Assembly (NCBI GenBank): GCA_964291285.2
Contig: OZ219786.1
Location: 1,184,001-1,248,000 of the forward strand
Length of the DNA stretch: 64,000 nucleotides
From: Alphaproteobacteria bacterium
GTDB lineage: Bacteria > Pseudomonadota > Alphaproteobacteria > Bin95
Direction: 5' to 3'
This document shows, piece after piece, positions 1,213 to 41,702 of the stretch (position 1 is the first letter of the stretch; the number at the start of each line of letters is the position of its first letter). A program made the translations under genes and the position numbers. The notes under the pieces are model-generated. The model saw nothing but the letters and a program-made list of their open reading frames with translations. It was not told where the DNA came from and did no database searches.

Positions 1213-1458
1213 TACCCGGGATGAGTTCCGTCCGGGCCGCCATCCCCATCCCTTGTATCTCGCTGCATAGCGATGGTTGCTATGGTTTCTGTGGCGGAAG
1301 CGGACGGACGGCAGACGCCGCGCCCGCCACACCACCGTGCGCACCTGTCGGTGCTAACCTGTTGATACAGCGATTGTTTTTCCTCGTGCAACAGCGGGTC
1401 GGGGGTGCAACTGCAACCGCAATGTGCCCCGCCTGCAAATGGATGCAGGAGGAAATCC

Positions 1459-2580
1459 ATGCCCAATGTCCGCCTCAAGGAAAGCCGGATCGAGGCCCTT
1501 GAACCCCGGAAGGCGCCCTACGATATCCGCGATACCGAACTGAAGGGCTTCGGTATCCGCGTCCTGCCTTCGGGCAGCAAGCGCTATTTCATTCACAGCC
1601 AGCATCAGGGCCGGCGCCTCTGGAAGACCGTCGGCGACGCTGGCAGCATGGACTTGGGCGAGGCCCGCCGGCGCGCAACGGAACTGCTTGCCGCCATCCG
1701 CCGCGACGAAACCCCCACCCTGCCGGAAGAGAGGCTCTTCGAAGCCGTGGCCGGGGAAGTCCTCTTCCGCTACGGGCGGAACTGGAAGCCCGGAACCATG
1801 AAGGTCAACCGGGACTATCTGCGCAGCACGATCCTTCCCCGGTTCGGCGGGATGAACATCGCCGACATCACCCGGCAGGATGTGCAGAACTGGTTCGCCT
1901 CCCTTCGCGCGACGCCGGTGGCGGCCGACCGGTCCGCGCCGATCCTGTCCGTCATCATGCGCCAGGCCGAGGTTTACGGCTACCGCCCGGAGGGCAGCAA
2001 TCCCTGCATCGGCATCCGCCGCTACCGGCGCAAGGGAAGGGAGCGGTTCCTGTCGGAGGCGGAGTTGCACCGTCTCGCACGAGTGCTGGACAGTAATGAA
2101 GCGCGGCATTCGCGCGAAGTGGCGTTCGTGCGCCTGCTGCTGCTGACCGGCTGCCGCAAGAGCGAGATACTGACCCTGCAATGGTCCGACTGCCGCGAGG
2201 GGCGCCTGTTCCTGCGCGACGGCAAGACCGGGCCCCGGACCGTCTGGCTGTCTTCGCCCGCGCGCACCGTCCTGGACGGGCTTCCCCGGCAGGGCAAATG
2301 GGTCTTCCCCTCGCCGCAGAGGCAGGGGCCGGTATCCGCAACCGTCTTCGACAAGTTCTGGAGCCGGGTCCGGGAGGAGGCGGACATTGGCGATGTCCGG
2401 CTTCATGATCTCCGCCATACATATGCCAGCATCGCCATCATGGGGGGCGAGACCGTCACGGCGACGGCGCGGCTGCTCGGGCACAACGACGCGCAGACGA
2501 CACTGAAATACGCCCACCTGTCCGACCGTTCGGTCCGGGAGGCCGCCGACGCTCTCGGCTCGATTCTCGGGGAGGGCTGA
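1459..2580 (+). CDS. Tyrosine recombinase/integrase with N-terminal arm-binding domain (copy 1)
   Basis: RBS AGGAGG; DTELKGFGIRVLPSGSKRY arm domain; catalytic TGCRKSE, KTG, HDLRH, LGH, KYAH. Confidence 0.93.
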   Translation: MPNVRLKESRIEALEPRKAPYDIRDTELKGFGIRVLPSGSKRYFIHSQHQGRRLWKTVGDAGSMDLGEARRRATELLAAIRRDETPTLPEERLFEAVAGEVLFRYGRNWKPGTMKVNRDYLRSTILPRFGGMNIADITRQDVQNWFASLRATPVAADRSAPILSVIMRQAEVYGYRPEGSNPCIGIRRYRRKGRERFLSEAELHRLARVLDSNEARHSREVAFVRLLLLTGCRKSEILTLQWSDCREGRLFLRDGKTGPRTVWLSSPARTVLDGLPRQGKWVFPSPQRQGPVSATVFDKFWSRVREEADIGDVRLHDLRHTYASIAIMGGETVTATARLLGHNDAQTTLKYAHLSDRSVREAADALGSILGEG

Positions 2581-2583
2581 TCC

Positions 2584-3750
2584 ATGCCGAGGCGGAAAAG
2601 GCTCACCGACGCCGGCATCGCAAGGCTCCGGGCCGGGGCGCGAGAATATACGGTCTGGGACACCGGGGTCGCCGGGCTCGGGGTCAGGGTCCGCCCCTCC
2701 GGCAGCCGGACCTTCATCTACCACCGCAAGACGGCCGACGGGTTGCGGAAGATGTCCCTCGGCCCGGCGGCGCTGCGCAAGGTCGCGGATGTGCGCCGCG
2801 CCTGCATGGAGGCCGCATCCGGGGCTGTCGCCGCCGTCGGGATAGTCGAACGTCCTCGCGAGAGGGCGCCGCTGTTCCGGGATTTCGTGGCTGGCCCCTG
2901 GAAGGCGGCCCGTTTCGACCGCTGCAAGCCCTCCACGCAGAAGGGATTCAAGAGCAATCTGGAGCGCCGGTTGCTTCCGGCCTTCGGTTCCCGGCGCCTC
3001 GACCGCATCACGCGCCCCATGGTGCTCCGCTGGTTCGAGGACTACAGCAGAACGGCGCCCGGCAACGCCAACAAGGCACTCGCCCTGCTGCGGCAGATCC
3101 TCAACCATGCCCGCGCCTGCGGGTATATCGAAGCCAACCCGGTGCGCGGCATCCGCCGCAATCCTGGCCGGAAGATGACGCGCTTCCTGTCCCGCGAGGA
3201 AATCGCCCGGCTTCACCGCGTCCTCGACCGGTATGCCCAAGGGACGGTCTCGCAGGCGCAGCAGGCCGACATCATCCGCCTGCTGCTGCTCACAGGCTGC
3301 CGCAAGAACGAGATCGTCTGTCTCCGCCGGGAGGAAGTGAGGGACGACCGGCTCGAACTTGCAGACGCCAAGACGGGACCGAGAACGGTCCTGCTGAACG
3401 CGCCGGCACGGGAGATCGTCGCGCGCCGGATGCGGCAGGGAAACGGCCCTTGGGTCTTCCCCTCCGTCAGGGACCCGTCCCGTCCCCGGTCGCACGAGCT
3501 CCACCTCTGGTATCGGGTGCGGCGCGAAGCCGGCATCGAGGATGTGCGCCTGCACGACCTGCGCCATACCGTGGCCAGCCAGGCGGCGATGAACGGCGTT
3601 CCCCTGCCGGTCGTCGCCCGCCTGCTCGGTCACAGCAACGTGCGGATGACCATGCGCTATGCCCATGTCGGAGACCGCGAGATCGAGGCGGCGGCGGAGA
3701 GGGTCGGGCAAGCCATCGCAGCAATGTTGGGCGAGGAACGAAGCCGCTGA
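2584..3750 (+). CDS. Tyrosine recombinase/integrase with N-terminal arm-binding domain (copy 2)
   Basis: WDTGVAGLGVRVRPSGSRTF; TGCRKNE, KTG, HDLRH, LGH, RYAH; starts 3 nt after copy 1. Confidence 0.93.
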   Translation: MPRRKRLTDAGIARLRAGAREYTVWDTGVAGLGVRVRPSGSRTFIYHRKTADGLRKMSLGPAALRKVADVRRACMEAASGAVAAVGIVERPRERAPLFRDFVAGPWKAARFDRCKPSTQKGFKSNLERRLLPAFGSRRLDRITRPMVLRWFEDYSRTAPGNANKALALLRQILNHARACGYIEANPVRGIRRNPGRKMTRFLSREEIARLHRVLDRYAQGTVSQAQQADIIRLLLLTGCRKNEIVCLRREEVRDDRLELADAKTGPRTVLLNAPAREIVARRMRQGNGPWVFPSVRDPSRPRSHELHLWYRVRREAGIEDVRLHDLRHTVASQAAMNGVPLPVVARLLGHSNVRMTMRYAHVGDREIEAAAERVGQAIAAMLGEERSR

Positions 3751-4372: not shown

Positions 4373-4373
4373 C

Positions 4374-4700: not shown

Positions 4701-4757
4701 GGCGCACTCAAGGTCGAAGGTATTGCAGAGTGGGAGCATAGGAGGGAGGAAGGAGCC

Positions 4758-23489: not shown

Positions 23490-24350
23490 TAGTCACCTGG
23501 CACTGAAGTAGAGTTCATTGTAGGATGGTCTTTCGGGTCGGACAAAGGAGGTCATCTCGATGGGGCGCGGTACGGGACAGCCGCTGGCGGCCTTGGTCTT
23601 GAGCGATGAGGAACGGTCGTTTCTGGAAGCGCAGGTTCGGCGTCACCGTGTGGCGCGCTCGCTGTCGGATCGCTGCCGCATGATCCTGCGTTGCGCTGAC
23701 GGGCTGGGCAACAAGGCGGTAGCCGCAGAACTCGGCATGCACGAGCACACCGTCGGCAAGTGGCGCAGGCGTTTCGTCAAGAACCGCATCGAGGGGCTTT
23801 CGGACGAGCCCCGTCCGGGGCGCCCGCGGAGCATCGCGGACGAGAAAGTGGCGGAAGTGATCGAGCGCACGCTCACCTCGACGCCTGCGGACGCGACCCA
23901 CTGGTCGCTGCGCTCGATGGCGAAGGAGGCGGGGCTGTCACACACGTCGATCTGGCGCCTCTGGGGCGCGTTCGGCCTGCAGCCGCACCGGGCTGAGACG
24001 TTCAAGCTGTCGGCCGATCCGCACTTCGTGGACAAGGTCCGCGACATTGTCGGCCTCTACCTCTCGCCGCCGGACCGCGCGCTGGTGCTCTGCGTCGACG
24101 AAAAGAGCCGGATCCAGGCCCTCGACCGCACCCAGCCGGTCCTGCCGATGCTGCCCGGCATCCCTGAGCGGCGCACCCACGATTACAAGCGCAACGGCAC
24201 GACCTCGCTGTTCGCGGCGCTCGACATCGCCACCGGTGCGGTGATCGCCAAGTGCTATCGCCGCCACCGGGCCAGGGAGTTCCTCGACTTCCTTTGTCCG
24301 ACCCGAAAGACCATCCTACAATGAACTCTACTTCAGTGCCAGGTGACTAG
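23489..24350 (+). mobile_element. IS630 derivative with duplicated inverted left end and truncated transposase (23560-24324)
   Basis: 61-bp perfect inverted repeat 23489-23549 / 24290-24350; ORF has [28 protein letters not shown] and ends after REFLDFL. Confidence 0.88.
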
Positions 24351-24469
24351 TATCGATTCCCCGCCTTCCACCATATCCTCTATGCTGCCTGGGAGAATTG
24401 CTCCCGGTAGCGCTTGCCGTTGTGGCAAAGCCCGCCAGGCTTGACGCGTTGGGGGAAGGGGAATTGACG

Positions 24470-24700
24470 ATGGGCGAAGCAACGCTGGCGGGCTTCGATC
24501 CGGTCTGGCCGGTTCTGGCCGTATCGGTGACGATACTGATCGCAATCGTCATCGGCCTTGTGAGGTTCGACCGCCTGGCTTCACGGCAGCCGGTGCAGGC
24601 AGACAGCCCGGCGGTCCCGACCGAATTCGGCAGCAAGCTTTCGGCGACGACCCCGGCAAAGACCTCCCCTGCAACCAGGCGCGGACCACCGCCCCGGTGA
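24470..24700 (+). CDS. Small single-TM hypothetical protein
   Basis: Purine-rich RBS; VWPVLAVSVTILIAIVIGLV hydrophobic stretch. Confidence 0.45.
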   Translation: MGEATLAGFDPVWPVLAVSVTILIAIVIGLVRFDRLASRQPVQADSPAVPTEFGSKLSATTPAKTSPATRRGPPPR

Positions 24701-24869
24701 CCGCTGCGACGCTCCGGCGGCATCACCCGCGCGCGGCCCGCGCCGCCGGCCTTTCCGCCCCCGGCCCATCGCCTGTTCCATCAAGGCCCGGCAACAAGCC
24801 CCCGTTCGCGCCGGCGCGCCTGTTCACGCCGCCTGTGGGTCCCTGTCCCCGTCCGTATAGAATGGTGTC

Positions 24870-27800
24870 ATGGTCGCGACGGTGACGGACATCGGGTCGG
24901 CAAGCTCGACGGTCCACTATTTCGAGCAGGACGGCTACTACGCGAAGGGGGACCCGGAGCACCGCCGGGCGAGCTTCTGGCACGGCGAGGCGGCGCGGGC
25001 GCTGGGCCTGGGCCGGCATGTCTCGCCGAAGAAGTTCCATGCGATCCTCCAGGGCTGCGTGCCGGGCACGGATATCCGGCTGGGCCGCCTGCGCGACGGC
25101 GAGCACCAGCACCGTCCGGGGGTGGACATCACGCTTTCGGCGCCGAAGTCGGTATCGCTGGCGGCGCTGCTGCACGGCGACAGGCGGGTGGTCCGCGCGC
25201 ATGACGAGGCGGTGCGCGCGGCGCTGGACCGGGTGGAGGCGGAGCTTCTGCAGACGCGGGGCTGGGACCCGGAGACCCGCAGGCGCCCGCGTGTGAAGGC
25301 GCACGGCATGGCGGCGGCGACCTTCCGGCACCTTGCGAGCCGCAATCTGGACCCGCAGCTGCACACGCACTGCGTGGTGGCGAACATGACCCGGAACGGT
25401 GCCGGGGAGTGGCGGAGCATCGAGGCGACGGCGATCCGCCGCCACAAGAAGCTGATCGGGGCGCATTACCGCAACGAGCTGGCGCGGCGGCTGGAGGCGC
25501 TCGGCTACGGGATCGTGCCGGTGATGATCGGGCCGGTGCCGGGCTTCGAGCTGGAGGGCTACGACCGGGAGGTGCGCGAGGCGTTCTCGACCCGGCGGCG
25601 GGACATCCTGGAGGACATCAGGCGGCGGGGCGGGGCCTACAGCGCGGCGCGGGCGCAGCAGGCGGCGCTCTACACGCGCCGTCGCAAGGCAGAGCCTGCC
25701 ATGGACGAGCTGCGGCGGATATGGCGGCGCCGCGCCAGGGAGGCGGGCCTGCCGTCCCGCGAGGCGGCGGCGCGGACGAGGCGCGGGCGGCGCGCGGAGA
25801 GGCAGGCGGAGGCGCGCCCCGTCCTGCCGGTCCATGAAGCGGTCTGGCGGGCGGTGGCGCATCTTGAGGAGCGGTCTTCGGTGTTCGCGGCCGGCGACAT
25901 CGCGGCGCATGCGCTCGGCCAGGCGCCGGGGCGGTATTCGCTGCGCGAGGCCGAGGCGGCGGTGGAGGAACTGCGGCGCGACGGGCATCTCGTTGCGGCG
26001 GCGTTGCGCGGCGCTGACCGGGCGTTCGTCACCGAGCGGGCGCTCCGGGCGGAGCGCGGCAATATCGCCTGGATGAGAGAGGGCGCCGGGGCGGGGGCGC
26101 CGGCGGCGGACGGGGCGGCGGTGGAGAGGGAGCTTGCCGCCGGTCCGCTGACGGAGGGCCAGCGCGAGGCGGTGCGCACGATCCTGCTCGCGCGGGACCG
26201 GGTGGTGGGCGTGCAGGGCCATGCGGGCACGGGCAAGACGGCCATGCTGCGCGAGACGGCGCGGCTTGCCGGAGAGCGCAAGGTGGTGGGGCTGGCGCCG
26301 TCGATGGCGGCGGTGCGGGCGCTGGAGCGGGAGGCGGGCATTCCGGCGCGGACGCTGCAATGGTTCCTCGCGCGCCACCGGGACATCGGCGACCGGATCG
26401 CAAGTCCGGAGCGGCTGGCGGAGGCGCGGCTCGCGTTCGGCGGCGCGGTGCTGGCGGTGGACGAGGCTTCGATGGTGAGTTCGGCGCAGATGCGCCAGCT
26501 GATGCGGATATCGGAGCGGATCGGCATCGCGCGCCTGGCGCTGGTCGGCGACACCGGGCAGCTGCGTTCGGTGGAGGCCGGGCAGCCGTTCCGGCAGTTG
26601 CAGCGGGCGGGCATGGCGACGGCGCGCATGGACGAGGTGCTGCGCCAGCGCGACCCCGACCTGCGCGAGGCGGTAACGGCCATCCGGGAGGGCGAGCCGG
26701 CCGAGGCCGTGGAGCAGCTCGGCGGCAATGTCCACGAGGCTGAGTCGGACGAGCTCGGCGAGGCGGCGGCCCGGCTCTGGCTCTCGCTGCACCCGGAGGC
26801 GCGCGCCCGCACGGCCATCCTGGCGCCGACGCATGCGCTTCGGGAGGACATCAACGAGGCGGTGCGCGAGGGGCTGCGCGACGAAGGCCTGCTGCACGGG
26901 CGGGTGCTGGAGATCGAGCGGCTGGTCGGCCTCGGGCTGACGCGCGCACAGAAGGCGGATGTCGCCAACTACCGCCCCGGCGACGTGCTGGTGTTCCACA
27001 ACGACCTCTACCGGTTCCGGGTGAAGGCGGACGACGCCTGCACGGTGACGGGAGCGCAGGACGGCCGGGTGCTGCTGCACCATCCCGACGGGCGCCCGCG
27101 CCGGATCGATCCGTCGAAGCCGGTCCGCTACCGCTACGAGGCTTACGAGACCAGGCCGATCCGCCTCCAGGCCGGTGACCGCATCCGCTGGACGCGCAAC
27201 GACCGGAAGCGCGGCCTCGTCAATGGCAGCGAGGCGGAGGTGCTCGCCATCGGCTCCCGGCTGGTAAAGATCGGCACCGGGGACGGCCGCACCCTGTCCA
27301 TGCGCAGGGAGGACCCGCAGCTGCGCCATGTGGACCATGCCTGGAGCGCGACCCTGCATGCGGCGCAGGGCACGACCCGCGACAATGCGATCGTGGTGCT
27401 GGACTCCGGCCATGGCCTGCCCGTGGACCGGGCGGCATTCCATGTCGGGATCAGCCGGGCGCGGGACAATGCGGTGGTGCTGACCGACAACCGCGAGGAC
27501 CTTGTCGAGGCGTTGGAGGCGCATGCGGGCACGGCCATGACGGCGCTGGAGGCGGTGGGCGAGGAGATCGCCCCGCCGGCGCCCCTGCCGATCCCGGCGC
27601 GCGAGGCGCTGTGGCCGGACCTCTCGGCCTGGCGCGCGCTGGAGGAAGAGGCGCGCCGGCAGGGCACCATCCCGTTCTACGTGGAGGGATGTGCGGACGC
27701 GGTCGAACGGCTCGCGGAACTGGGCCGGACCCCCGGCGTGGCGGCGGGCGTCGCGGCCGAGGCGGAACGGGTTGCCGGGGCGCATGCGGCGGCGGGCGAG

Positions 27801-29204
27801 GCGCGCGCGGCCCTCGACCGGCTGCATGAGGCGCTGGAGGCCGGGATCGACGGGCGGGCGGGGCTGACCGGCAGGACCGGCGACCGCGCGCCCGAATACG
27901 ACGATTGGCGCAAGGCGGCCGGGCGGCTGCTGTCCGCGGCGGACGGGATCGACGCGCAGGAAGAACGCCGGCGCCCGCATCTCGACGCCCGCCCGGCGGT
28001 GCGCGACGGGATCGCGGAGGCAAGGGAGGTATTGCGGGGCATTCTCGACGCGGACGCGGCCGTCCTCCCGGTGCTGGGCGAGTGGAAGGATCTGGAACGG
28101 CGCGCGCAGGAGGCCGGCAGGCACTGGTACCGGGAGCACGGCCGCGCCCATGTGCTCGGCCGCATGGCGGATCTGCCGCAACTGCCGCACATGGACGCCG
28201 CCCTGCGCGGGGGCATGGCCACCATCGTGGCGGAGGGCCGCGGCATCGCCGCCGCCGGGGAAAGGTTCGGACCGCTCGCCGCGAAGCTGCGGGACTGCGT
28301 CGAGAAGCGCGAGCGCCTGATCGGGGAGACCGGGGAGGACAGGGCGGTCTATTCCGTGCTTCCCCGGCTGGAGGCCTGGCGGGAGGAGGCCGGCGGGCTG
28401 CTGGCGGAGGCGCGCGGCCTTCTGGAGGCGGACGGCTCGTTCGCCCATGCCGGCGCCCTGCCCGAGCTGCGCGACGGCATTGCCCGCGACCGCAAGTCGC
28501 TGGAACGCGCGGTGGCGCTCGACGGGCGCCATGCCGCCTGCCTGCTGGAGAGGCTGGAGATCGTGGAGCGCGAGACCGATACGCCCCTCTTCTACCGCGA
28601 GGGCAATGACGCGGTCGTCCAGAGCATGCGGGAGTTGGCGGCCGAGCCCGACCTCGACGCCGAGGCGCGCGCCCTGCTGGAGCAGGCGGTCGCGGAGCAT
28701 GAGGCGGCGGCGGCGGCGGAGGCGGAGATGCTGCGCCTCTTGCGGGACCTCGGCGCCTGCCTGGCCCTGCGCGCGCGGCTGTCGGAGCGGGCGGCGGCGC
28801 GGCGCGAGAGCCCGGTCGACGACGAGGCCGCCTACCGGCCCTGGTCGGAGGAGGGGGAACGGCTCTGCCGGACGGCCGACCGTATCCTCGCGGAGGAGCG
28901 GTATGCGTCCCACCTTGACCGCTTCCCGGAGGCCCGCGGCATCATCGAACGGGACAGCAGGAGGCTCGGCCAGGCGCTGGAGACCGACGCGGCCTGGACT
29001 GCGTTCGCGCCCCGGCTCGAGAACTCCCGCCTGAACGTCCCGGAGCTGAGGCAGGTGGTCGAGGAGGCGAAGCGGATGCTGGACCGGCCCGAACTCGACC
29101 CCGGCGCCCGCCGGAAGCTCGAGATCCATGTCCGCGTCCGCGACCCGTCCCGCCACCGGGGCCTCTACCATGATATCGGCCCGGGCGGCGGCATCTCGAT
29201 GTAA
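24870..29204 (+). CDS. MobF (TrwC/TraI-type) relaxase-helicase
   Basis: HYFEQDGYY tyrosines, DITLSAPKSVS, HLASRNLDPQLHTH, FSTRR; helicase QGHAGTGKT, VDEASM, GDTGQL, HAAQGTT, SRAR. Confidence 0.95.
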   Translation: MVATVTDIGSASSTVHYFEQDGYYAKGDPEHRRASFWHGEAARALGLGRHVSPKKFHAILQGCVPGTDIRLGRLRDGEHQHRPGVDITLSAPKSVSLAALLHGDRRVVRAHDEAVRAALDRVEAELLQTRGWDPETRRRPRVKAHGMAAATFRHLASRNLDPQLHTHCVVANMTRNGAGEWRSIEATAIRRHKKLIGAHYRNELARRLEALGYGIVPVMIGPVPGFELEGYDREVREAFSTRRRDILEDIRRRGGAYSAARAQQAALYTRRRKAEPAMDELRRIWRRRAREAGLPSREAAARTRRGRRAERQAEARPVLPVHEAVWRAVAHLEERSSVFAAGDIAAHALGQAPGRYSLREAEAAVEELRRDGHLVAAALRGADRAFVTERALRAERGNIAWMREGAGAGAPAADGAAVERELAAGPLTEGQREAVRTILLARDRVVGVQGHAGTGKTAMLRETARLAGERKVVGLAPSMAAVRALEREAGIPARTLQWFLARHRDIGDRIASPERLAEARLAFGGAVLAVDEASMVSSAQMRQLMRISERIGIARLALVGDTGQLRSVEAGQPFRQLQRAGMATARMDEVLRQRDPDLREAVTAIREGEPAEAVEQLGGNVHEAESDELGEAAARLWLSLHPEARARTAILAPTHALREDINEAVREGLRDEGLLHGRVLEIERLVGLGLTRAQKADVANYRPGDVLVFHNDLYRFRVKADDACTVTGAQDGRVLLHHPDGRPRRIDPSKPVRYRYEAYETRPIRLQAGDRIRWTRNDRKRGLVNGSEAEVLAIGSRLVKIGTGDGRTLSMRREDPQLRHVDHAWSATLHAAQGTTRDNAIVVLDSGHGLPVDRAAFHVGISRARDNAVVLTDNREDLVEALEAHAGTAMTALEAVGEEIAPPAPLPIPAREALWPDLSAWRALEEEARRQGTIPFYVEGCADAVERLAELGRTPGVAAGVAAEAERVAGAHAAAGEARAALDRLHEALEAGIDGRAGLTGRTGDRAPEYDDWRKAAGRLLSAADGIDAQEERRRPHLDARPAVRDGIAEAREVLRGILDADAAVLPVLGEWKDLERRAQEAGRHWYREHGRAHVLGRMADLPQLPHMDAALRGGMATIVAEGRGIAAAGERFGPLAAKLRDCVEKRERLIGETGEDRAVYSVLPRLEAWREEAGGLLAEARGLLEADGSFAHAGALPELRDGIARDRKSLERAVALDGRHAACLLERLEIVERETDTPLFYREGNDAVVQSMRELAAEPDLDAEARALLEQAVAEHEAAAAAEAEMLRLLRDLGACLALRARLSERAAARRESPVDDEAAYRPWSEEGERLCRTADRILAEERYASHLDRFPEARGIIERDSRRLGQALETDAAWTAFAPRLENSRLNVPELRQVVEEAKRMLDRPELDPGARRKLEIHVRVRDPSRHRGLYHDIGPGGGISM

Positions 29205-29512
29205 GGCGCGGTGGCGGCCCGCCTTCCCGGCACAGTGCCGGGCGGGCCCCGGGCTTCCCCGAAGGCGTCCGGCAGCAGGCGGCGCACGCGCTCTTCCCGG
29301 CCGGTCGGGGCCGGCCGCCGGCCCGCATCCGATGACGAAGGGCGAGGCGTTCATGCCCGCCCCGGCCCCGTTTCGCCGCCCTGGCGAGCGGACAGGGCAG
29401 GTCGAGCGGTAACCCGGTAACCGGATCGGCGAAGCCGACGCGGTTCTCAGCCGGCGCCGTTTCCGCCCCTCCGTCCGCGACCCCGGGGGAACGCCCGCCG
29501 GCGGTTCCCGGT

Positions 29513-29599
29513 GCGGCGGCCCGGAGCGCCGGCCGCCGGGGCAGCCGAAACGGCGGCGGCCCGGAGCGCCGGCCGCCGGGGCAGCCGAAACGGCGGCGG
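29513..29599. repeat. 40-bp tandem direct repeat (about 2.2 copies)
   Basis: CCGGAGCGCCGGCCGCCGGGGCAGCCGAAACGGCGGCGG at 29521 and 29561. Confidence 0.95.
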
Positions 29600-29812
29600 A
29601 CCGGTTTCCGGCGTCCCGGTCCCCACCCCGTCCGGACCGTCGCAATCCTCTCCCGCGCGGCCGGCCGGGCGCCGCCGCCGGCCGTTCCCGGCGAACGCCG
29701 CCGTCCGGCCTGTCCGGCCGGAAGGTCGGGAAAGGGTTGTCGGGGCGATTGCTGCGGGGGGCGTCCGTGCGACCGGCTCCCGCGCCCGTCCCGCCAGCAG
29801 GAGACGTCGCCC

Positions 29813-31117
29813 ATGTCCGGCATGCCGGCTTCCGCTCATATCCATCCGCCCGCCGAAGCAGCGGGCTTCCATTGCTGCAGGGCCAGCTCCGGCAACGCCA
29901 CCGGGGCCGCGCCCGCCCGGCGGTCCAACGCCTCGCGCGCCCGGGACCGGCTTGCGGCGCGCGGCCTCTGTTTGAACTGTGGCAAGGTTTCCCCGCCCGA
30001 CGGGGCGAAATACTGCCCGGAATGCCAGGAGCGCCGCCGCGCCAGCGACCGCAAGGCCGCCCGCAAACGCCGCCTGCTTCGGAGCAACCGCGGCCTCTGT
30101 CAGGAATGCGGCGCCACGCCCGAAAAGCCCCGCCGGCGGCTCTGCGAGGCCTGCAACGAAAAACATCTCGCGCTCAGCCGCCGGCGCCTGCAGGAGCGCA
30201 AGGATGAACGGCGCCAGGCCGGCCTCTGCGTGCAGTGCGGGAACGGGGCGCCCGCTGAAGGCAATGCGTGCTGCGACGACTGCCTCGCCGCGCGCCGGCG
30301 GATATACCGCGCCCGGATCGACCGCCGCCGCCGGCAGGCCGACCGCTCGCTCTGCATCGAGTGCGGCGAGGCCCCGCCGGTTCCCGGCAGCCGCCGCTGC
30401 CCGGACTGCCGGCCGCTTCCCGCCGAACGGGACAAGCAGGCCGCCAGACGCCGCAGGGACGCCCGACGCGCCGTCGGATTGTGCCTCGATTGCGGCCGCC
30501 ACCCCGCCGCGCCCGGGCGCCTGGCCTGCGACGCCTGTCTTGCCGTCTCGCTGGACGGGTACAACCGCAGGGTGCTCGCCCGGGCCTCCCGGGGGCTCTG
30601 CATCCGCTGCGGCAAGGCTTCTCCCGCCGAGGGCTCGACAAGGTGCCGGCCCTGCCGGGACGAGCGCCGCACCACCGAGCGCGCGAGATGGCATCGCAGG
30701 ATCGCCGAGGCCCGCGCCCGGGGCGTTTGCATCCATTGCACGAAGCGGCCTCCCGACCCCGGGTTCGACTCATGCACGGAATGCCGCGAGGCGCGCCTCG
30801 CCACCGACCGCCGCCGCTACCATGCCGTGACCCGCGAGCGCCTGTCTGCCGGCCTCTGTCCGCGCTGCGGCGTCCGCGAGCCCGAACCCCTCATGCGGGA
30901 ATGCGGCCCCTGCCGCGACCGGCAGCGCAGCTACGCGTATCGCGGCATGCCCGACCTGCCGACGCAATACACCGTGATCGGGATCGCCGACGGCGCAGAC
31001 CACGGCACCTGGGAGACTCCGATGGAGGTCGCCGCCGCGCTGGCCTTCGCCAAGCTCACGCTCGACGACGTCGAGATCGTGACCGACGCCGGCCCGGCCG
31101 TCTTTGCCGGCCGCTGA
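29813..31117 (+). CDS. Tandem C4 zinc-finger-like repeat protein (8 units)
   Basis: RBS AGGAG; eight units of (G)LCxxC-x11-CxxC joined by Arg-rich linkers of 20-24 aa. Confidence 0.85.
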   Translation: MSGMPASAHIHPPAEAAGFHCCRASSGNATGAAPARRSNASRARDRLAARGLCLNCGKVSPPDGAKYCPECQERRRASDRKAARKRRLLRSNRGLCQECGATPEKPRRRLCEACNEKHLALSRRRLQERKDERRQAGLCVQCGNGAPAEGNACCDDCLAARRRIYRARIDRRRRQADRSLCIECGEAPPVPGSRRCPDCRPLPAERDKQAARRRRDARRAVGLCLDCGRHPAAPGRLACDACLAVSLDGYNRRVLARASRGLCIRCGKASPAEGSTRCRPCRDERRTTERARWHRRIAEARARGVCIHCTKRPPDPGFDSCTECREARLATDRRRYHAVTRERLSAGLCPRCGVREPEPLMRECGPCRDRQRSYAYRGMPDLPTQYTVIGIADGADHGTWETPMEVAAALAFAKLTLDDVEIVTDAGPAVFAGR

Positions 31118-31250
31118 CGTCCGTTTCCCCTCTCCCGGCCCTGGCGGTATCGACGCCGGAAGAAGGTGGGGAAAGGGTTTTCGATGCGATCCCTGCGGGT
31201 GGCCGGGCGGCCGGCTCCCGCTCCCCTTCCTCCAACAGGAGATTATCGAC

Positions 31251-31565
31251 ATGCCCGCCACCAATGCGTCCGCCTTCCGCCCCGGTGCGAACAGCTTTCT
31301 GGTCCACGTGTTCGGACGCGGCCTGCAGGACGACCACTATGTGGTCGAGCGGTACCGCACCGGCATCGACGGTGACATCCGCCGGCTGCCGGGCGGCAAG
31401 GGCCGTCCGCTGACCCTGTCGCTGGAGACCGTCCGCGAGCTGCGCCCCGCGCGCAACGAGATCCTCATCTGCAAGGGCGAGAAGAGGGCCGACTCGGGGG
31501 TGCAATATTGGGGCAGTTCCGCAATCTGGGGCCATATGCTGGAGCGGAGCCGGTTCCCCCGCTGA
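31251..31565 (+). CDS. Hypothetical protein
   Basis: RBS CAGGAG; GC3-biased ORF MPATNASAFRPG... Confidence 0.7.
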   Translation: MPATNASAFRPGANSFLVHVFGRGLQDDHYVVERYRTGIDGDIRRLPGGKGRPLTLSLETVRELRPARNEILICKGEKRADSGVQYWGSSAIWGHMLERSRFPR

Positions 31566-31782
31566 CGGCAATGGCAGGGACCCGGGTGCGGGCGGCATCG
31601 CTCCGTCCGCGCCCCCTTCGCCCCGCCCGCCGGGTGAGTTCCGCAACGTCCTTCGCCCGGCATCCCGATCCCCGCCTACCCTGTCCCGGCCTGCGCTGGC
31701 ATCGACGCCGCAAGGTCGGGAAAGGGCTTTTCGGGGTGAGTTGCAACGACTCGCAAACAACCTCTCGCAAGGAGAAATCATC

Positions 31783-32196
31783 ATGAACGGCCTCAATCGC
31801 GTCGACCTGATCGGCAATCTGGGCGCGGACCCCGAGTTCCGCAGCCTCCCCGGCGGCGGCGAAGTCGCCAATTTCAGCATCGCCACCAACGAAGGCTACC
31901 GCGATCGCCAGTCCGGCGAATACAGGCAGCAGACCGAGTGGCACCGGGTCACCGTCTTCCAGGAGGGCCTGGTGGCCATGCTGCGCAAGCACGCCGCCAA
32001 GGGCCGCCAGGCGCACGTCACCGGCAAGCTGCGCACCCGGAAGTGGAAGGACCGCGACGGCAACGACCGCCATACCACCGAGATCCTGGTCGGCCCGCGC
32101 GGCGCAATCAACTTCCTCGACCCCAGGCCGGAGCGGGCCGACAACCGGCCGCCGGCGCCGCCCCCGGAAGCATACGAGATGGACCTCGCCGCCTGA
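31783..32196 (+). CDS. ssb: Single-stranded DNA-binding protein
   Basis: LNRVDLIGNLGADPE, NFSIATNE, TEWHRV, GKLRTRKW; RBS AAGGAG. Confidence 0.95.
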   Translation: MNGLNRVDLIGNLGADPEFRSLPGGGEVANFSIATNEGYRDRQSGEYRQQTEWHRVTVFQEGLVAMLRKHAAKGRQAHVTGKLRTRKWKDRDGNDRHTTEILVGPRGAINFLDPRPERADNRPPAPPPEAYEMDLAA

Positions 32197-32216
32197 GGCA
32201 TCGTCATCGCCACTAC

Positions 32217-32251
32217 GCCCCGGGGCCTGCGGGTTCCGGGGCTTTTCCTTT
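32217..32251 (+). terminator. Intrinsic terminator after ssb
   Basis: GCCCCGGGGCC..GGTTCCGGGGC stem followed by TTTTCCTTT. Confidence 0.75.
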
Positions 32252-32407
32252 GTACGTTCAGCACGTCGCCCCGACTCCGGTCCGGGGCGTTTATTCTTGT
32301 ACCCGGTCCCGCGCCTGTCTTCATTGCGGGGAAATCCGCGCGGGCGCCACCGGGGGCGCCGTCCCGTTTCCCGTCCGCCGCCTTCCTTTCGCATGTCCGT
32401 GCGAGGC

Positions 32408-32854
32408 TCAGCGGCGGCGCGCCTTGTCCGCATACCGGCGGGCAAGCTCCGAGCCCCGGGCCTCGCCGAAGGCATCCAGCAGCAGGCGGCGCATCCGCTC
32501 TTCATGCCCCATCTCGACCATGTCGGTCATGAGCCGTTCGAGCAGCACGCCGAGCACCGCCGGCAGGTCCGCCATGCCCGCCGGATCGGGCGCGGCCGGA
32601 CCCAGCCAGCGTTCCGCGATCCCGGCGACGCGGTCGTGCAGCCGGCGCTGTTCCTCCCGGCCGAGGGCAAGCGACGGCAACGGGCCGGCCCCGTCTTCGG
32701 CAGCGTCGAGTTCGACCGTCAGGCCGCACTCGATCACGTAGGGCGAGAGGTTCATGCCGGCCGCGGCCGCGCGCGTGGCGATCTCGTCGCGCTGCAGGTC
32801 CGTGCAGGAAAAGGACCGCACGATCTTCTTCACCCCGGAGCGCGGGCGCCTCAC
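32408..32854 (-). CDS. Ribbon-helix-helix (MobC-like) protein 3
   Basis: RSFSCTDLQRDEIATRAAAAGMNLSPYVIECGL; GTGA overlap with upstream stop. Confidence 0.72.
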   Translation of the reverse strand: MRRPRSGVKKIVRSFSCTDLQRDEIATRAAAAGMNLSPYVIECGLTVELDAAEDGAGPLPSLALGREEQRRLHDRVAGIAERWLGPAAPDPAGMADLPAVLGVLLERLMTDMVEMGHEERMRRLLLDAFGEARGSELARRYADKARRR

Positions 32855-33171
32855 GGCGCCTCTCCCGGGTCTTCGGGCGCGAACAGCCGGCAGAGCAACG
32901 CAACCGCCTCGAACGCCGCCATGTCCATGCCCGGCAGCGGCGCCAGCATGGTCCGGCTGCAAAGGTCGAGCCGCGCCACCCGGTCGAACAGCTCCCGCTG
33001 TTCCTCCGCCGTCAGCACCAGAGGCTCGCCCGCCCGCCCCCCGGCCTCGCGCTTCAGCGCGCACGCCACCAGGAACGGCGAGACCTTCATGCCCGCGGCC
33101 TTCGCCCGCGCCTGGATGCGCGACCACTGCGCCGGCGTCGGATAGAGGCAGCGCGACTTCGCCTGCTTCAT
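32851..33171 (-). CDS. Ribbon-helix-helix (MobC-like) protein 2
   Basis: RCLYPTPAQWSRIQARAKAAGMKVSPFLVACAL; RBS GGGAGG. Confidence 0.72.
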   Translation of the reverse strand: MKQAKSRCLYPTPAQWSRIQARAKAAGMKVSPFLVACALKREAGGRAGEPLVLTAEEQRELFDRVARLDLCSRTMLAPLPGMDMAAFEAVALLCRLFAPEDPGEAP

Positions 33172-33196
33172 GACAACCTCCCCCGGTATGGCGCGC

Positions 33197-33535
33197 TCAC
33201 GCCAGTTCCTCCTGCCGGGCGAGCCATGTCTCCACTTCGGCGGCGAGCGCGCCGCGCTCCTCCGAGAGGCGCGCGGCCGCCAGCCTCTCCTCCTCCAGCC
33301 GGCCGAGCAGCAGCACCTCGCGCGCCACCCGCCGCCAGACCGCCGCCGGCAGCCCGCCCGGCCCCCGGTCCGGCGGCGGACCCGGGTCCTCCTCCGCAAG
33401 CCGGTGGACGATGAAGCGCGACACCGGCATGCCCGCTTCGTCCGCCCGCGCCTTCAGCCGGCGCCACTCGCTGTCGGTCAACGTGACCGCGCGCTGGCGC
33501 CGCCGGTCCTCCCTGTCCCTCGTCATGAGCTTCAT
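33197..33535 (-). CDS. Ribbon-helix-helix (MobC-like) protein 1
   Basis: RAVTLTDSEWRRLKARADEAGMPVSRFIVHRL. Confidence 0.75.
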   Translation of the reverse strand: MKLMTRDREDRRRQRAVTLTDSEWRRLKARADEAGMPVSRFIVHRLAEEDPGPPPDRGPGGLPAAVWRRVAREVLLLGRLEEERLAAARLSEERGALAAEVETWLARQEELA

Positions 33536-33590
33536 CCTCTCCCGTCATCGCCTGTATGGTCGCGGCCGCGCCGCCGCAGGGGGACAGCCC

Positions 33591-34259
33591 GTGACCGACA
33601 GACCGCCCGAAACCGCCCTCGACCGCCTCAGGGCCGATCTGGCCCGCCGGAACGATCCGCCATCCCCCGCCCCGGCTCCCGAATCCCCTCCGGCCCCGGC
33701 CGCCGCACCGCCGCCGGTGAAGCCGACGCCCGCGAACCGGCCGGCAGCCGGGTCCGGGCAAGCGCCGCCGGCCCGCCGGCAGCCCTTGAGCGTGGACCGG
33801 GCATACCTCCTCCAGGAAACCGCCCGCCGCCGCGAACGCTCCCGGACCCGCATCAGGATCAACCTCACATGGGCGGCGGCCGTCACGCTTGCCATCGCCG
33901 TCCTCGTCACCGGCGCATACGTCTCCCCGACCCGTATGCAGGACGAGCTGTTCAGCCGCGTGTGGCCCTGGCGCGCCCATGTCTGGAACAAGTATGGCGG
34001 CGCCGTCATCTGGTGCATCAACGAGGCGCGCAAGACGAGCAGTTCCTTCACATGCCAGGTCCCGTTCCTCACCGACGGCCCCGACTGTCCCGTGCCCGAC
34101 ACGCAGGACGTCACCGCCGCATACCTCTGTCCGCCCTGGGAGAAATGGCCGACCGACCCCGCGCCGCGCCGCGCTGGAGCGCCGAGGGACCGCCGCTATG
34201 GAGCCGGTGAGGCGCGGGCGCTTCCCGTTTGGCGCCCCGGGCGCCCCCGAATTGCCTAA
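33591..34259 (+). CDS. Hypothetical single-TM protein with Pro-rich N-terminus and Cys-containing C-terminus
   Basis: GTG start; TM LTWAAAVTLAIAVLVTGAYV; four Cys in C-terminal part. Confidence 0.6.
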   Translation: MTDRPPETALDRLRADLARRNDPPSPAPAPESPPAPAAAPPPVKPTPANRPAAGSGQAPPARRQPLSVDRAYLLQETARRRERSRTRIRINLTWAAAVTLAIAVLVTGAYVSPTRMQDELFSRVWPWRAHVWNKYGGAVIWCINEARKTSSSFTCQVPFLTDGPDCPVPDTQDVTAAYLCPPWEKWPTDPAPRRAGAPRDRRYGAGEARALPVWRPGRPRIA

Positions 34260-34616
34260 CAATCATTCCGTATTTCTAGACAGAATACCCCTGGTAGACA
34301 ATAGGTATCGTCATTTGCCATGATTCGGCGGATCGCCATGCCTATCCTGGATACCTCCATGGACCAAAATGTTCCGGCAGCGATCCACGCGCGTATCCAC
34401 GGATTCTGCAATGCAGTTTCAGTTCCCCGGATTCAACCAACGGGCTCCCGCCACATCCACGATTGCTTCGTATGGCTTTCCGGCAACCCCCTTGACATGT
34501 GCTCCAAGCCCCTGTATCCGTTGCCGTACACGAGAGAAGGACGGCGCTTCCCAAAACATGAAACAATCGTGAAGATTGGTTGCTTCGTGTTACACCACCG
34601 TCACCCCCACTACACC

Positions 34617-34752
34617 ACCGTCACCCCGGACTTGATCCGGGGGCCAGCCCTGACCGTTCGCGTCCGCCGCGGCCGGTGGAGGCGGGGCCGGACCGCCTGA
34701 GGCTGCCGGGAGTGTCGGGGATAGGCCCCGGCTCGGGGGCCGGGGCGACGAC
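34617..34752. repeat. REP-like palindromic unit with degenerate inverted partner
   Basis: ACCGTCACCCCGGACTTGATCCGGGG identical to the unit at 45354; partner GGCCCCGGCTCGGGGGCCGGGGCGACG. Confidence 0.75.
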
Positions 34753-34814
34753 GGTGATGCAAGTCCGGGGCGACCCCCGCCTTCGCGGGGGCAGGAGATT
34801 TTCGTCGCCCCCGA

Positions 34815-35492
34815 TTACGGCTTCGGGGATGCGGCCGACGGCTTGTTGAGGCAGCGCAGCAATCGCGTGCAGCCGGTGCCCGCGACCGGCGGCGAGCGGT
34901 GCACGATGCCGCTGCCCGGTCCGCCGCAGCTTCCCTTGAAGACCGCCACGTCGTGGACCCGGAGCCGCTCCAGCGGTCCCTTGTACGATTTCTGCTCGCG
35001 CAGCGCCCGCCCGGCGTCGACCGGCCGGACCCACTCGGTGGCGGGGCCGCGGTATGTCGTCAGGAGGCGGGCCTCCACATAGTCGCGGTGGAACTTCCAG
35101 CAGGCATCGTGGCTGACGCGCTCCAGCCGGACATCGACGAGACCGCTTCGGGCGATCCCGGCGAACGCCGAGACGAGACCGCCGATATCCCCGAGCAGCA
35201 GGTCCCGCATGTCTCCCGGAGGCATGCCGCAGTCATCCAGATGCGGTTCCACCGCCCGCCGGAGACCGCCCGGCCGGACGAGAACCCGCAGGTCGGGAAG
35301 ACACGCCGCGTCCAGTCGTTCGAGCCAGGCCTGCAAGCGCCGGGGCAGCGCGCGGCGCCAGATCACGAGCTCCGTGCCGGGATTGGCGATGGCGCCGAGG
35401 CCTTCCGCCGCATCGCACATCCCGATGCCCGCGCCGGACGCGGCCGGCGCGCCGGCGAAACCGCCTTCCGGGGATACCGACGGACCGGTCAC
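34815..35492 (-). CDS. DUF1826-like protein
   Basis: [37 protein letters not shown]; coupled to a COG0523 gene. Confidence 0.85.
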
Positions 35493-36718
35493 GACGGCTC
35501 GGCCCGCTTCCAGGCCGGGAACGGGTCCTTCAGCTTTTTCCAGGCCGCGGTCTGCATGGCTTCGGCATCGGCGTCGCCGACGAGGCAGGCGTCGAGGCGG
35601 CGGCGGATCGCGGCCTCGTCCATATCGGTGCCGATGAAGACGATTTCCTGGCGGCGGTCCCCGTAGACGGCGTCCCAGGAGTCGGCGATGTACCGGCGCC
35701 ATTCCCGGTGGTCGGGCCACCGCTCTTTGGGCACATTCGCCCACCAGAAGCCCATGGCCTCATGGCGCACAAGGGCGCCGGCCTGGCTCAGCTCGCCGAC
35801 CCATTCCGGGCGGGTGGCCAGCCAGAAATGCCCTTTGGCGCGAATGACTCCCGGCCAGGAGGAATTGATGAAGGCGTAGAATTTTTCCGGATGGAACGGG
35901 CGGCGCTCCCGGTACACGAAGCTGCGCACGCCGTATTCTTCCGTCTCCGGCTTGTGGTCCGCAAAGCCGTACAGCTCCTTGAACCAGAGGGGATGTTCCT
36001 CGGCCCTGTCGTGGTCGAACCGCCCGGTGTTCAGGATCTTGTCCAGCGGCACGCGCGACATGCTGGTTTCGATGAGGTCCGCATCGGGATTGAGCGAGCG
36101 GATGATCTTGCGCGCGGCGTCGAGCCGTTCGGGAGTCGCGGCGTCGATCTTGTTCAGGACGATGACATCGGCGAACTCGATCTGGTCGACAAGCAGGTTG
36201 ACCAGCGTGCGGGTGTCCTCCTCGCCCAGCGCCTCGCCGCGGTCCTTGAGGAAGTCGGTCGAGGCGTAGTCGCGCAGGAGGTTCGCGGCATCGACCACCG
36301 TCACCATCGTGTCGAGGCGCGAGACGTCCTCCAGGCTCTCGCCCTCTTCCGTCCGGAAGTTGAAGGTGGCCGCCACGGGCAGCGGCTCGGAAATGCCGGT
36401 CGATTCGATGAGGAGGTAGTCGAACCGGCCGTCCTCCGCGAGGCGGCGCACCTCCTTGAGAAGGTCGTCGCGCAAGGTGCAGCAGATGCAGCCGTTGGTC
36501 ATCTCGACAAGCGTTTCTTCCGTGCGGCTCAGATCGGCCCCGCCGTCCCGGATGAGGTCGGCGTCGATGTTGACCTCGCTCATGTCGTTGACGATGACCG
36601 CGACGCGCTTGCCTTCGCGGTTGTTGAGGATGTGGTTCATCAGCGTGGTCTTGCCGGCGCCGAGGAAGCCGGAAAGCACGGTGACGGGCAGGTTCGGTCG
36701 TTCCAGGGTCCGGGTCAT
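35489..36718 (-). CDS. zigA: COG0523 zinc metallochaperone GTPase (ZigA/YciC-like)
   Basis: [49 protein letters not shown]. Confidence 0.92.
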
Positions 36719-36834
36719 GGCAGGTCTTCAGAGCGTGATTACGGGAAGTCGGGGGCGTCAGGTGCGGGCGCCGCGTAAAGCCGGGGAAAGCAGCCGGCCT
36801 CGCGCCGGAAGCACGGGAGGCGTCTTACCGTCCC

Positions 36835-37338
36835 TCAAAGCTGCGTCGGGTTCGGCGCATCGCCATAGACGGCCCCGGGATCGAAGGATTTCCGCGACTC
36901 CGTGAACACAAGCCGGGCGGGTCCGCCGGGAGGGCCGCCGAGCTCGACCGAGCGATAGAAGCAGGAACGGTATCCGACGTGGCAACTGGCGCCCGAACCG
37001 GCGACCCGGACGCGCAGCCAGACGGCGTCCTGGTCGTCGTCGATGCGCATCTCGGCAACCTCCTGGACGAGGCCGCTGGTCGCGCCCTTGCGCCAGAGGC
37101 ACCGGCGGCTTCGGCTCCAGTAGTGCGCCTCGCCGGTCGCGATCGTTCGTTGCAGAGCCTCGCCGTTCATGTAGCCCAGCATCAACGCTTCGCCCGTGTC
37201 GGCGTCGGTCGTGATGCAGGGGATCAGCCCGTCGGCGTCGAATCTGGGCGCGAGCGCGAGGCCTTCCTCGACCTGCTCGACGGTCGTGCGGGACGCGAAG
37301 GGGGCGGCTGCTGCCGGAACGGACCTGTCGGACGCCAT
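36835..37338 (-). CDS. hisI: Phosphoribosyl-AMP cyclohydrolase (Zur-linked paralog)
   Basis: [39 protein letters not shown]. Confidence 0.93.
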
Positions 37339-37403
37339 TGTCGAACTCTCTCCTGCGGCCGCGCCCGGCGTTCGGGAGCACTTGGCTGTTGTCATCGGGA
37401 GCG

Positions 37404-37421
37404 GCAACGTTATAACATTGC
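37404..37421. promoter_or_regulatory. Putative Zur box
   Basis: Near-palindrome GCAACGTTATAACATTGC between divergent hisI and zur. Confidence 0.75.
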
Positions 37422-37449
37422 GCATCCTGACGCAAGAAGGGACAAGGCC

Positions 37450-37956
37450 ATGGCGCCCCGGCCGGTCGAACCCCAGCCCTGTACCGATTCCGACTGCCGC
37501 GGACAGCATGCGCCGGCCGAGCGGGTTGCGCTGGCGGTGTCCCTCTGCAGCGCGCGCGGGGTGCGGCTTACGAAGCTGCGGCGCCAGGTGCTGGAACTGC
37601 TCTGGGAGAGCGGCCGCCCGACGGGCGCCTATGAACTGATCGCAGCCCTCAGGCTTCGGGGCTCCCGCCCGGTCGGGCCGCCCACCGTCTACCGGGCGCT
37701 TGAGTTCCTGATGTCCCAGGGGCTCGTCTCGAAGATCGAAAGCCGGAATGCCTACGTCCCCTGCGCGCATCCGGAGCGCCGGCATGATTGCCTGTTCTTC
37801 ATCTGCAACGACTGCGGGGCGGCAGCCGAACTGGAGGATTTGCGGATCGAGCGGCTGCTTGCCGAGAATGCCGCCGCCCTCGGGTACCGCGTGACGCGGC
37901 GCGTGGTCGAGGTGGAGGGCACCTGCGCGAGTTGCATCGCGGCCGGCGCGGCCTGA
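37450..37956 (+). CDS. zur: Fur-family zinc uptake regulator
   Basis: [51 protein letters not shown]. Confidence 0.9.
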
Positions 37957-37976
37957 GCGGGAAAGAGGGGCGCACC

Positions 37977-39122
37977 GTGGAAAGCCGGACTCCCGATGGA
38001 TCGCCGCGGCGTCTGCCGGTCTCGGTGCTGACCGGCTTCCTTGGCAGCGGCAAGACAACCGTGCTCAACCATCTGATCCGGCAACCCGCACTGAGACGGA
38101 CACTCGTGCTCATCAACGAATTCGGCGAGATCGGCCTCGACCACGACCTCGTGACGCACAGCAAGGATGACGTCATCATCGAGATGTCGAGCGGCTGTCT
38201 CTGCTGCACCATCCGGGGCGACCTTGCCAGGACCTTGCGCGAGGCCCCCGGGCGCTTTGCGCGCGGGGGCGAGCTATGGTTCGACCGGGTGGTCATCGAG
38301 ACCACCGGGCTCGCGGACCCGGCCCCGATCCTTCATACCCTGATGACCGAACCGGCCGTCGCGCGGCGTTACCGCCTGGACGGGGTCATCTCCACAGTCG
38401 ATGCGGTCAACGGCGGCGGCACGCTCGACCGCCAGATCGAGCCGGTCAAGCAGGCGGCAGTGGCCGACCGCCTGCTGATCACGAAAACCGATCTCGTCGG
38501 ACCCGATGCCCTGCGCAGATTGCAGGACCGTCTGCGGGGCCTGAATCCCGCCGCCCCGCAGATCATCGCGGAGAACGGTGCTGTCGATCCGGCACTGCTG
38601 TTCGATGCCGGTCTGTACGACCCGAAGACCAAGAGCCCCGACGTGCAGAACTGGCTCAAGGCGGAAGCCTATGCCGGGCCGCACGATCATGAACGCGGAG
38701 CGGCCGGTCACGGCCGCGCCTGCGGACTCAACGACAGCAATCGCCATGACGCCCGCATCAGGGCGGTCTGCCTCACAATCGATGAGCCCGTCCACAGCGG
38801 CGCTCTCGATCTCTGGCTCGAATCGCTGTTCGCGTTCCGGGGCGCGGACCTTCTGCGCATCAAGGGAATCGTCAATGTGGCCGATCTCGATGGACCGGTC
38901 GTCATTCACGGCGTCCAGCACACCTTCCATCCGGCGGTCATGCTCAAGGAGTGGCCGGGCGAAGACCGTCGCTCCCGGATCGTCTTCATCACCCGCGGCA
39001 TCGACGAGGCCGTCCTGCGCGGCACGCTGAGGGTGTTCGACGCCGCCGGGGCCCGGCCGCCGGATCTCCTTCCGGTCGACGCCGGCGACAGCGGCCCCGC
39101 CATGTCCGAGGTGCGGGAATGA
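37977..39122 (+). CDS. Second COG0523/CobW-family GTPase
   Basis: [38 protein letters not shown]. Confidence 0.92.
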
Positions 39123-41448: not shown

Positions 41449-41702
41449 CCAGACTCCCCTCCCTGGGCCTGATCCTGCTCATCCGCATCTATCAGTATCT
41501 GTTGTCGCCGCTGCTTGGCTCCAACTGCCGCTTCACGCCGAGCTGCTCGGCCTATGCCATCGAAGCCTTGCGGCGGCACGGCCTCGTCCGTGGCGGCTGG
41601 TTGACGGTCGGCCGCCTGTTGCGCTGCCACCCCTGGCATCCGGGCGGCCCGGACCCGGTGCCGCCTGCGAAGGCGCGGCGAGGGGGAGCGGCGTTTCGAT
41701 GA
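41445..41702 (+). CDS. yidD: Membrane protein insertion efficiency factor
   Basis: [23 protein letters not shown]...[14 protein letters not shown]. Confidence 0.95.

Follow-up and report, generated by a model that had tools for sequence, protein, structure and literature searches.

The gene P0001 encodes an array of eight units, in each of which a CxxC-x11-CxxC knuckle leads into an Arg-rich helix, with a conserved acidic tail, and it is carried on a mobilisable integrative island of ~33 kb that occupies about 1329-34601 of the window, the whole 64,000-nucleotide stretch of alphaproteobacterial DNA analysed here. In the family to which P0001 belongs, whole units are duplicated, deleted and exchanged between lineages, and the arrays are mosaic. 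No named family was found above cut-off in Pfam, NCBIfam or PADLOC for the array, its tail or the partner gene c1, and no description of the array family was found in the main texts searched, which came mostly from outside the subscription journals. As far as searched, the family is undescribed and represents a new variant of known parts, a judgement that family tables belonging to PMC11541004 and PMC4999995 might yet alter; the preliminary description of this DNA had left room for a match to an already characterised family, and none was found for P0001. With about equal measures of confidence and doubt, we favour the reading that P0001 is a treble-clef-like finger chain that would bind DNA with some selectivity when the island establishes itself, its tail serving as an adaptor. 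The family numbers hundreds of members, with as many as 25 copies in a single genome, a fixed partner in c1 and a natural library of unit types; it offers a direct test of whether modular DNA reading evolved in bacteria, as well as a handle on island establishment.

The array protein and its predicted fold

P0001 is counted as coding because a ribosome-binding site (AGGAG) lies 9 nt 5' of its ATG, because GC is high at the third codon position (0.71/0.64/0.87 over the three positions) and because the gene is under purifying selection: against a 90%-identical paralogue dN/dS is 0.21, with 32/32 motif cysteines kept. An RNA-library contig from a relative spans 30062-30516 with 30 differences, and could be DNA in the library. 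The eight units, which start at nt 29969, 30098, 30227, 30353, 30482, 30599, 30728 and 30857, are the sole matches to CxxC-x9..13-CxxC when the window is read in all six frames, and they far exceed chance, since among 10,000 shuffled versions of P0001 no motif occurred in 9,847, one in 152, two in 1 and more than two in none. The preliminary description was accurate on the protein's outward features, namely the eight units, linkers of 24, 24, 23, 24, 20, 24 and 24 aa that are strongly basic (residues 53-375 as a whole, knuckles included, carry a net charge of +40) and mostly closed by G-L or G-V (six of the seven, with S-L closing one), an acidic C-terminal domain (net charge -6 in the final 59 residues) and no CxxCH heme motif, which occurs in 1/224 family proteins. 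In net charge per residue P0001 ranks 52nd of the 3,589 called proteins of >200 aa in its own genome. The eight units share a mean identity of 31% (42% in the knuckle, 20% in the helix), and the Arg-rich helix extends over 18-25 residues after units 1-7 and over 8 after unit 8.

The AlphaFold2 model of P0001 (metal-free, from a 40-row alignment) has a mean pLDDT of 84.7 but a pTM of 0.40, so that the units are confident while their mutual placement and the overall shape are undefined. Each unit is modelled as a knuckle and then a long helix, which begins at the second CxxC in seven of the eight units and five residues later in unit 4. The knuckle reads CxxCG in seven units and CxxCT in one, and across 392 family units the CxxC is followed by G in 98%. 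Treble-clef fingers draw their ligands from a CxxCG knuckle and from a second pair located where a helix begins (PMC4999995). The P0001 unit fits this scheme, but DSSP assigns no strand between knuckle and helix in the metal-free model, and since no hairpin is assigned we call the unit treble-clef-like rather than treble-clef. Each CxxC-x11-CxxC would hold one metal ion, probably zinc, with iron also possible. Helical phasing of the linkers was considered and is not claimed, because over 41 linker classes (modal lengths 20, 24 and 28) the periods 4.8 and 3.8 tied as best.

P0001 scores 13.2 and 11.8 bits against Pfam DZR and DZR_2 (cut-off 27), and it lacks the features of membership in the DZR, multiheme cytochrome c or HNH families. 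Foldseek of the whole model and of the tail against the PDB found nothing at E<=0.001, and the best VIA Z-scores, 4.0 for the whole model and 3.7 for the tail, do not establish a new fold. The top match of P0001 in the ESM Atlas (0.91) is an unnamed bacterial cluster, possibly its own, with low recognition, and c1 matched nothing there.

The acidic tail, ~60 aa long in P0001, is common to all members of the array family. Its profile has 231 matches among 1.84 billion representatives; at least one finger is present in 49 of the 150 matches listed, and the remainder are mostly short, the longer ones inspected looking like frameshifted remnants or chance fusions. In VIA the tail aligns best with chains of eL20 (Z 3.7, rmsd 4.8, 49 residues aligned), and it also aligns with the C-terminal part of I-HmuI (Z 2.7, rmsd 9.4, 56 aligned) and with a U5-52kD chain that we take to be GYF (Z 2.5, rmsd 4.3, 49 aligned). 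In 43 members there is no Pfam match to eL20, GYF or NUMOD1. Against BFVD the tail finds small uncharacterised viral proteins (best E 0.008). The modelled fold of the tail is common among tiny viral proteins and has no assignable match. The protein P0311, which to our eye resembles the RepC replication initiator, ends in the tail domain and may be a remnant or a true fusion.

The island, its cassette and the spread of the family

The element is a mobilisable integrative island, with two tyrosine recombinases, direct repeats and a MOBF relaxase (Table 1) and no transfer apparatus found: neither a T4SS nor a coupling-protein family was detected among the subset of island ORFs scanned. Its genes are ordered as recombinases, transposase-rich cargo, MOBF relaxase, array, c1, ssb and three RHH genes.

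Several other features of this region deserve mention. The cargo includes a 2137-aa gene (4338-10751, + strand) with DUF4011, SF1 helicase, MTES_1575 nuclease and DUF3320 domains, which in our estimation resembles the Hhe anti-phage system. Between relaxase and array, 29243-29370 holds a degenerate partial copy (76-87% identity) of the RHH gene at 32408-32854, and 29513-29592 is a perfect 40-nt tandem duplication that is a single unit in other genomic copies. Just past the right island end lies a short repeat (34597-34795) present at several other places in the genome. Beyond the island, 35489-42262 encodes two CobW-like GTPases (one by Pfam, the second presumably, by look), a DUF1826 protein (Pfam) and what we take, also by look, to be Zur-, CysRS-, SufE- and carbonic anhydrase-type genes, which suggests a zinc-starvation cluster.

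Table 1. Coordinates in the window of the array gene, its parts and the island features
Feature	Position	Strand	Basis or remark
Zinc-finger array gene P0001	29813..31117	+	434 aa; no Pfam, NCBIfam or PADLOC family at cut-off
Eight CxxC-x11-CxxC knuckles, Arg-rich helix after each	29969..30913	+	Motif search and AlphaFold2
Conserved acidic tail domain, beta-beta-alpha-beta, family-defining	30935..31102	+	Model pLDDT 85.1
10-bp direct repeat at left end, ACACCACCGT; possible attachment core	1329..1338	+	Homology to three other integrase pairs begins at 1329-1340
Right 10-bp direct repeat, island end	34592..34601	+	Three other copies cease matching at 34596-34598
Two tandem tyrosine recombinases, left island end	1459..3750	+	PF00589 E 4e-21 and 1e-22
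MOBF (TrwC) relaxase-helicase	24870..29204	+	PF08751 E 2e-75; NF041492 above cut-off
Partner gene c1, 104-105 aa, unnamed family	31251..31565	+	Almost constant array neighbour
ssb, single-strand DNA-binding protein	31783..32196	+	PF00436 E 3.9e-28
Three ribbon-helix-helix (NikA/MobA-like) genes	32408-32854, 32851-33171, 33197-33535	-	PF21983 E 4.6e-6 and 3.1e-5; NF041264 below cut-off
Leader word AAGGTCGGGAAAGGGTT	29722..29738	+	91 nt before array ATG; partly in hairpin arm, folding z -1.4
Leader word, second copy	31163..31179	+	88 nt before c1
Leader word, third copy	31712..31728	+	71 nt before ssb

Of 8,000 candidates scored in a protein search, 141 were array relatives, and those listed (120) are unnamed and carry 4-8 motifs. 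A look for relatives of 819-2335 aa among 8,000 candidates found none, which is weak evidence against fusions. Across a redundant set of 224 proteins, 4, 5, 6, 7 and 8 units occur in 37, 85, 47, 33 and 22. The own genome holds 25 tail-bearing array copies and one cut by a contig end, and the family is present in 13/16 other genomes of the genus and in only 6/301 genomes sampled from the class (the own genome included, 20 candidates scored per genome). In a species collection 276 stretches matched the family, and the best 80, which are not independent loci, were kept; by title these are mostly from Alphaproteobacteria, with others from Gammaproteobacteria, Acidobacteriota, Nitrospinota, Binatia and Palauibacter. 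This patchy, cross-phylum spread fits a mobile element. Neither P0001 nor c1 has a match in 72,556 PLSDB plasmids.

The closest companion of the array is c1, found at most 2.6 kb from 25/25 array copies in the own genome and beside the array in 72 of the best 80 of the 276 outside loci, six of the eight misses having <140 bases upstream. The c1 family comprises 1,744 clusters, with no informative name among the 120 listed, and its invariant residues are H, R-P, E, Q and W. Identities of array and c1 correlate at 0.65 (52 loci), which kinship explains. Among the other neighbours in the best 80 of 276 loci, counted by single-linkage clusters and with several loci on short contigs, genes of DNA handling or of islands predominate: SSB (56), YAcAr SLOG (46), an integrase cluster (36), RHH (20), Toprim (18), DUF4326 (12), relaxase (11, within 8 kb), HU (9) and 2OG-Fe oxygenase (6). 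These counts refine the earlier proposal that the array serves a relaxase element. The island bounds and the MOBF relaxase support a place for the array in such an element, but service to the relaxase itself does not follow: the tight partners are c1 and ssb, and a relaxase lies within 8 kb in only 11/80 loci. The relaxase is on the strand opposite to the array in 9 of those 11 loci, whereas the two share a strand in the window.

In the window's subfamily one leader word generally precedes each of the three genes array, c1 and ssb, whose order varies (array-c1-ssb, c1-array-ssb or c1-ssb-array). In the commoner subfamily a shared, hairpin-like spacer of ~85 nt usually separates c1 from the array, and no right-end motif common to the islands of that subfamily was found. 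The leader hairpins are weak (folding z -0.8 to -2.0), and Rfam gave no match in 24000-35000. Right after the cassette in one outside locus (L001, 14176-17973) are a 949-aa and a 311-aa gene that look to us like cas9 and cas1.

Conservation and exchange of units

Six loci of other genomes and one own-genome paralogue repeat the P0001 array with every unit in its place, at 81-90% identity. Over these eight orthologous arrays dN/dS is 0.23 in the knuckle, 0.35 in the helix and 0.15 in the tail, and 44/54 helix Arg positions and 63/101 other helix positions are invariant. Single units are thus not hypervariable, given the purifying selection on the helix. The commonest architecture has five units and is represented by 62 distinct sequences. 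There, linkers at one and the same position share 65-79% identity, against 8-34% for the first 16 residues when linkers of different positions are compared, which indicates that helix sequence is kept beyond its charge. The dN/dS values of distant sister arrays (helix 0.75 and 1.17) were set aside, as these arrays lack orthologous units and their dS approaches saturation.

At the level of whole arrays the picture is one of rearrangement. Clustering at 55% identity resolves 20 selected arrays of the window's subfamily into 23 unit types and eight strings, namely ABCDEFGH (8), ABCDEFIH (2), JCDEFGH (3), KLCMNOPH (2), QDRSTUVH, QDRSVUVH, QDRTWVH (2) and RTWVH; the labels hang on the threshold, since several types merge at 50% (16 types). 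By these strings the last unit, H, is the sole constant one. One array contains a recent unit duplication (119/129 nt identical), and in a sister island the relaxase, SSB and RHH proteins are 86-96% identical, yet the array is 41% identical. Three islands (L138, L139 and L143) carry two different arrays each, flanking c1. In the commoner subfamily, two or three different array genes lie close together in L008, L017, L023 and L026. The notion of a modular protein is upheld by the range of 4-8 units and by the mosaic unit order across lineages. To call the protein possibly reprogrammable, as the preliminary description did, was an overstatement: the units are position-conserved under purifying selection, and neither a target nor a code was found. 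Since each unit is kept in position, array variation amounts to slow block exchange.

Proposed DNA binding, its alternatives and related systems

The unit is also present in phages, where small proteins from 38 IMG/VR loci contain 1-3 copies. One phage protein (L125), in which two units precede an endonuclease VII domain (PF02945, E 1.2e-9), scores 43 bits with the unit profile; two others, whose HNH-like ends fall below cut-off, score 41 and 32 bits. Of 14 phage proteins scanned only one has a nuclease domain above cut-off, and apart from these three none has a catalytic domain, most being stand-alone proteins of 1-3 units. Nucleases of the His-Me class owe their specificity to DNA-binding modules that are tethered to them, often in tandem (PMC5714182). 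The endonuclease VII fusion is the best clue to DNA binding, with few proteins behind it. The small phage proteins (L088-L125), which match Pfam DZR_2 weakly, may merit a family of their own.

Nucleic-acid binding by P0001 is plausible, given its charge, the predicted knuckle-helix structure, the phage endonuclease VII fusion and the neighbours. In the reading that we favour, the metal ion of each unit, probably zinc, would cap the next helix as in treble-clef fingers, the Arg-rich helices would lie along DNA with unit-specific conserved residues conferring some sequence or structure preference, and the chain would read a long composite site. The acidic tail would bind no DNA and would link the chain to a partner, for which c1 is the obvious candidate; a complex prediction for tail and c1 (score 0.02) gave no verdict and says nothing for or against their pairing. 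Made soon after transfer, together with SSB, the array protein would help the incoming island to establish, perhaps by coating or tagging the DNA of the island itself or by taking up sites in the host or in competitors, and unit-block exchange between islands would slowly shift what it binds. Establishment regions typically contain SSB and genes preceded by a repeated leader (PMC11541004, PMC6294495), and the product of one establishment-region gene, HerB, can bind the host chromosome (PMC13370423). Some observations weigh on the other side. The Arg enrichment is partly expected from a GC content of 75%, which counts against the DNA-binding reading, and, with the relaxase orientation mixed and oriT not located, early expression from the transferred strand is a supposition. 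No DNA target of the array was found; islands that differ in their unit strings have almost identical leader words, so that the word does not track the variable units.

Conservation of the commonest array in hosts of different phyla would equally suit a ligand that is universal or non-specific. It is possible that the chain simply uses its charge to wrap the incoming DNA, single- or double-stranded, beside SSB, as a coat or chaperone in which unit identity serves folding and spacing only. The charge of +40, the presence of SSB in 56/80 loci (best 80 of 276), the tolerance of 4-8 units and the frequency of frameshifted-looking array remnants all accord with such a role. However, non-basic helix residues are conserved unit by unit, and two different arrays in one island (L138, L139, L143) are more easily explained by different ligands, and we regard a pure coat as unlikely, if worth real weight. 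Were binding non-specific, the array would still be a new establishment protein family, of modest interest. A bolder version of selective binding, in which each unit reads a few bp fairly independently and block recombination builds new long specificities, strikes us as rather doubtful. If true, it would be a bacterial counterpart of eukaryotic zinc-finger arrays, engineerable from the natural unit types; to our knowledge, it is mainly in eukaryotes that long finger arrays with turnover of entire units have been described.

We consider it improbable that P0001 instead binds RNA or the transcription machinery and reprograms the recipient, in the manner of TraR/Orf73 or of a ribosomal-type finger. 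The only PHROGs match is a weak one to PHROG 54, DksA-like zinc finger (E 4.6e-4), weak profile matches to solved nucleic-acid binders include, besides an HNH protein (E 0.01), RNA binders (eL37, with the same 11-residue spacer, E 0.009), and eL20 heads the structural rows of the tail, but the PHROG 54, eL37 and eL20 scores are at or near noise. TraR moreover requires DxxDxA and has a 17-residue spacer (PMC9239242), whereas P0001 has neither, and an assignment to TraR/DksA was rejected on these grounds, all eight spacers being 11 rather than that of CxxC-x17-CxxC; the DxxDxA pattern occurs somewhere in 19/224 family proteins. A little less probable again is a protein-binding anti-defence scaffold, whose units would bind acidic host defence proteins and whose arrays would vary with the defences met. 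Single-gene cassettes with a shared leader beside ssb do resemble anti-defence arrays (PMC11541004, PMC6294495), and arrays are exchanged between sister islands, but the helices of alignable orthologues give no sign of positive selection and the sole comparable unit with an identified partner domain is nuclease-fused; in the accessible text of PMC13551039 zinc fingers are raised merely as possible anti-CRISPR regulators. An effector exported to an animal host, with the basic helices as nuclear-import and chromatin-binding elements, is scarcely credible, since the context is one of ssb, primase and relaxase rather than secretion genes, the C-terminus is acidic and phage cousins exist, even if some host names (Poriferihabitaceae, Palauibacter poriticola) presumably point to sponge associates.

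Eukaryotic C2H2 arrays and TALE repeats are likewise tandem modules that change in number and order, but the array has a different fold and linkers, and its units are only ~30% alike. Treble-clef fingers share the CxxCG knuckle and the two cysteines at the helix start, and tandem pairs exist among them (LIM, nuclear receptors; PMC4999995), whereas P0001 has a very short spacer, long basic helices, eight units in a row and an unnamed tail. The C4 fingers of TraR, lambda Orf73 and DksA (PMC9239242) share a helix-C4 finger-helix layout and a place on mobile elements, besides the PHROG 54 match; P0001 differs from them in spacer and motif as described, and also in being basic rather than acidic and in being repeated. 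The island resembles integrative mobilisable elements with a tyrosine recombinase duo in its tandem recombinases at one end, short direct repeats and canonical relaxase, while the accessible part of PMC5704250 mentions no array or c1 cassette. Conjugative-plasmid establishment genes (pKM101 CUP units, p576 RHH-controlled genes and F HerB; PMC6294495, PMC11541004 and PMC13370423) are similarly separate genes with a repeated leader, beside ssb and with RHH nearby, but no sequence relation to the array was found, and array and c1 are absent from PLSDB. The accessory repeats of HNH/endonuclease VII nucleases (NUMOD-type, PMC5714182) are small tandem modules beside a nuclease, as is the array unit in L125, whereas the array family is without a nuclease domain (no Pfam or NCBIfam match to a His-Me catalytic domain in P0001) and its unit is not NUMOD. 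By analogy, the array would work as such tandem accessory modules do in binding DNA, but released from the nuclease.
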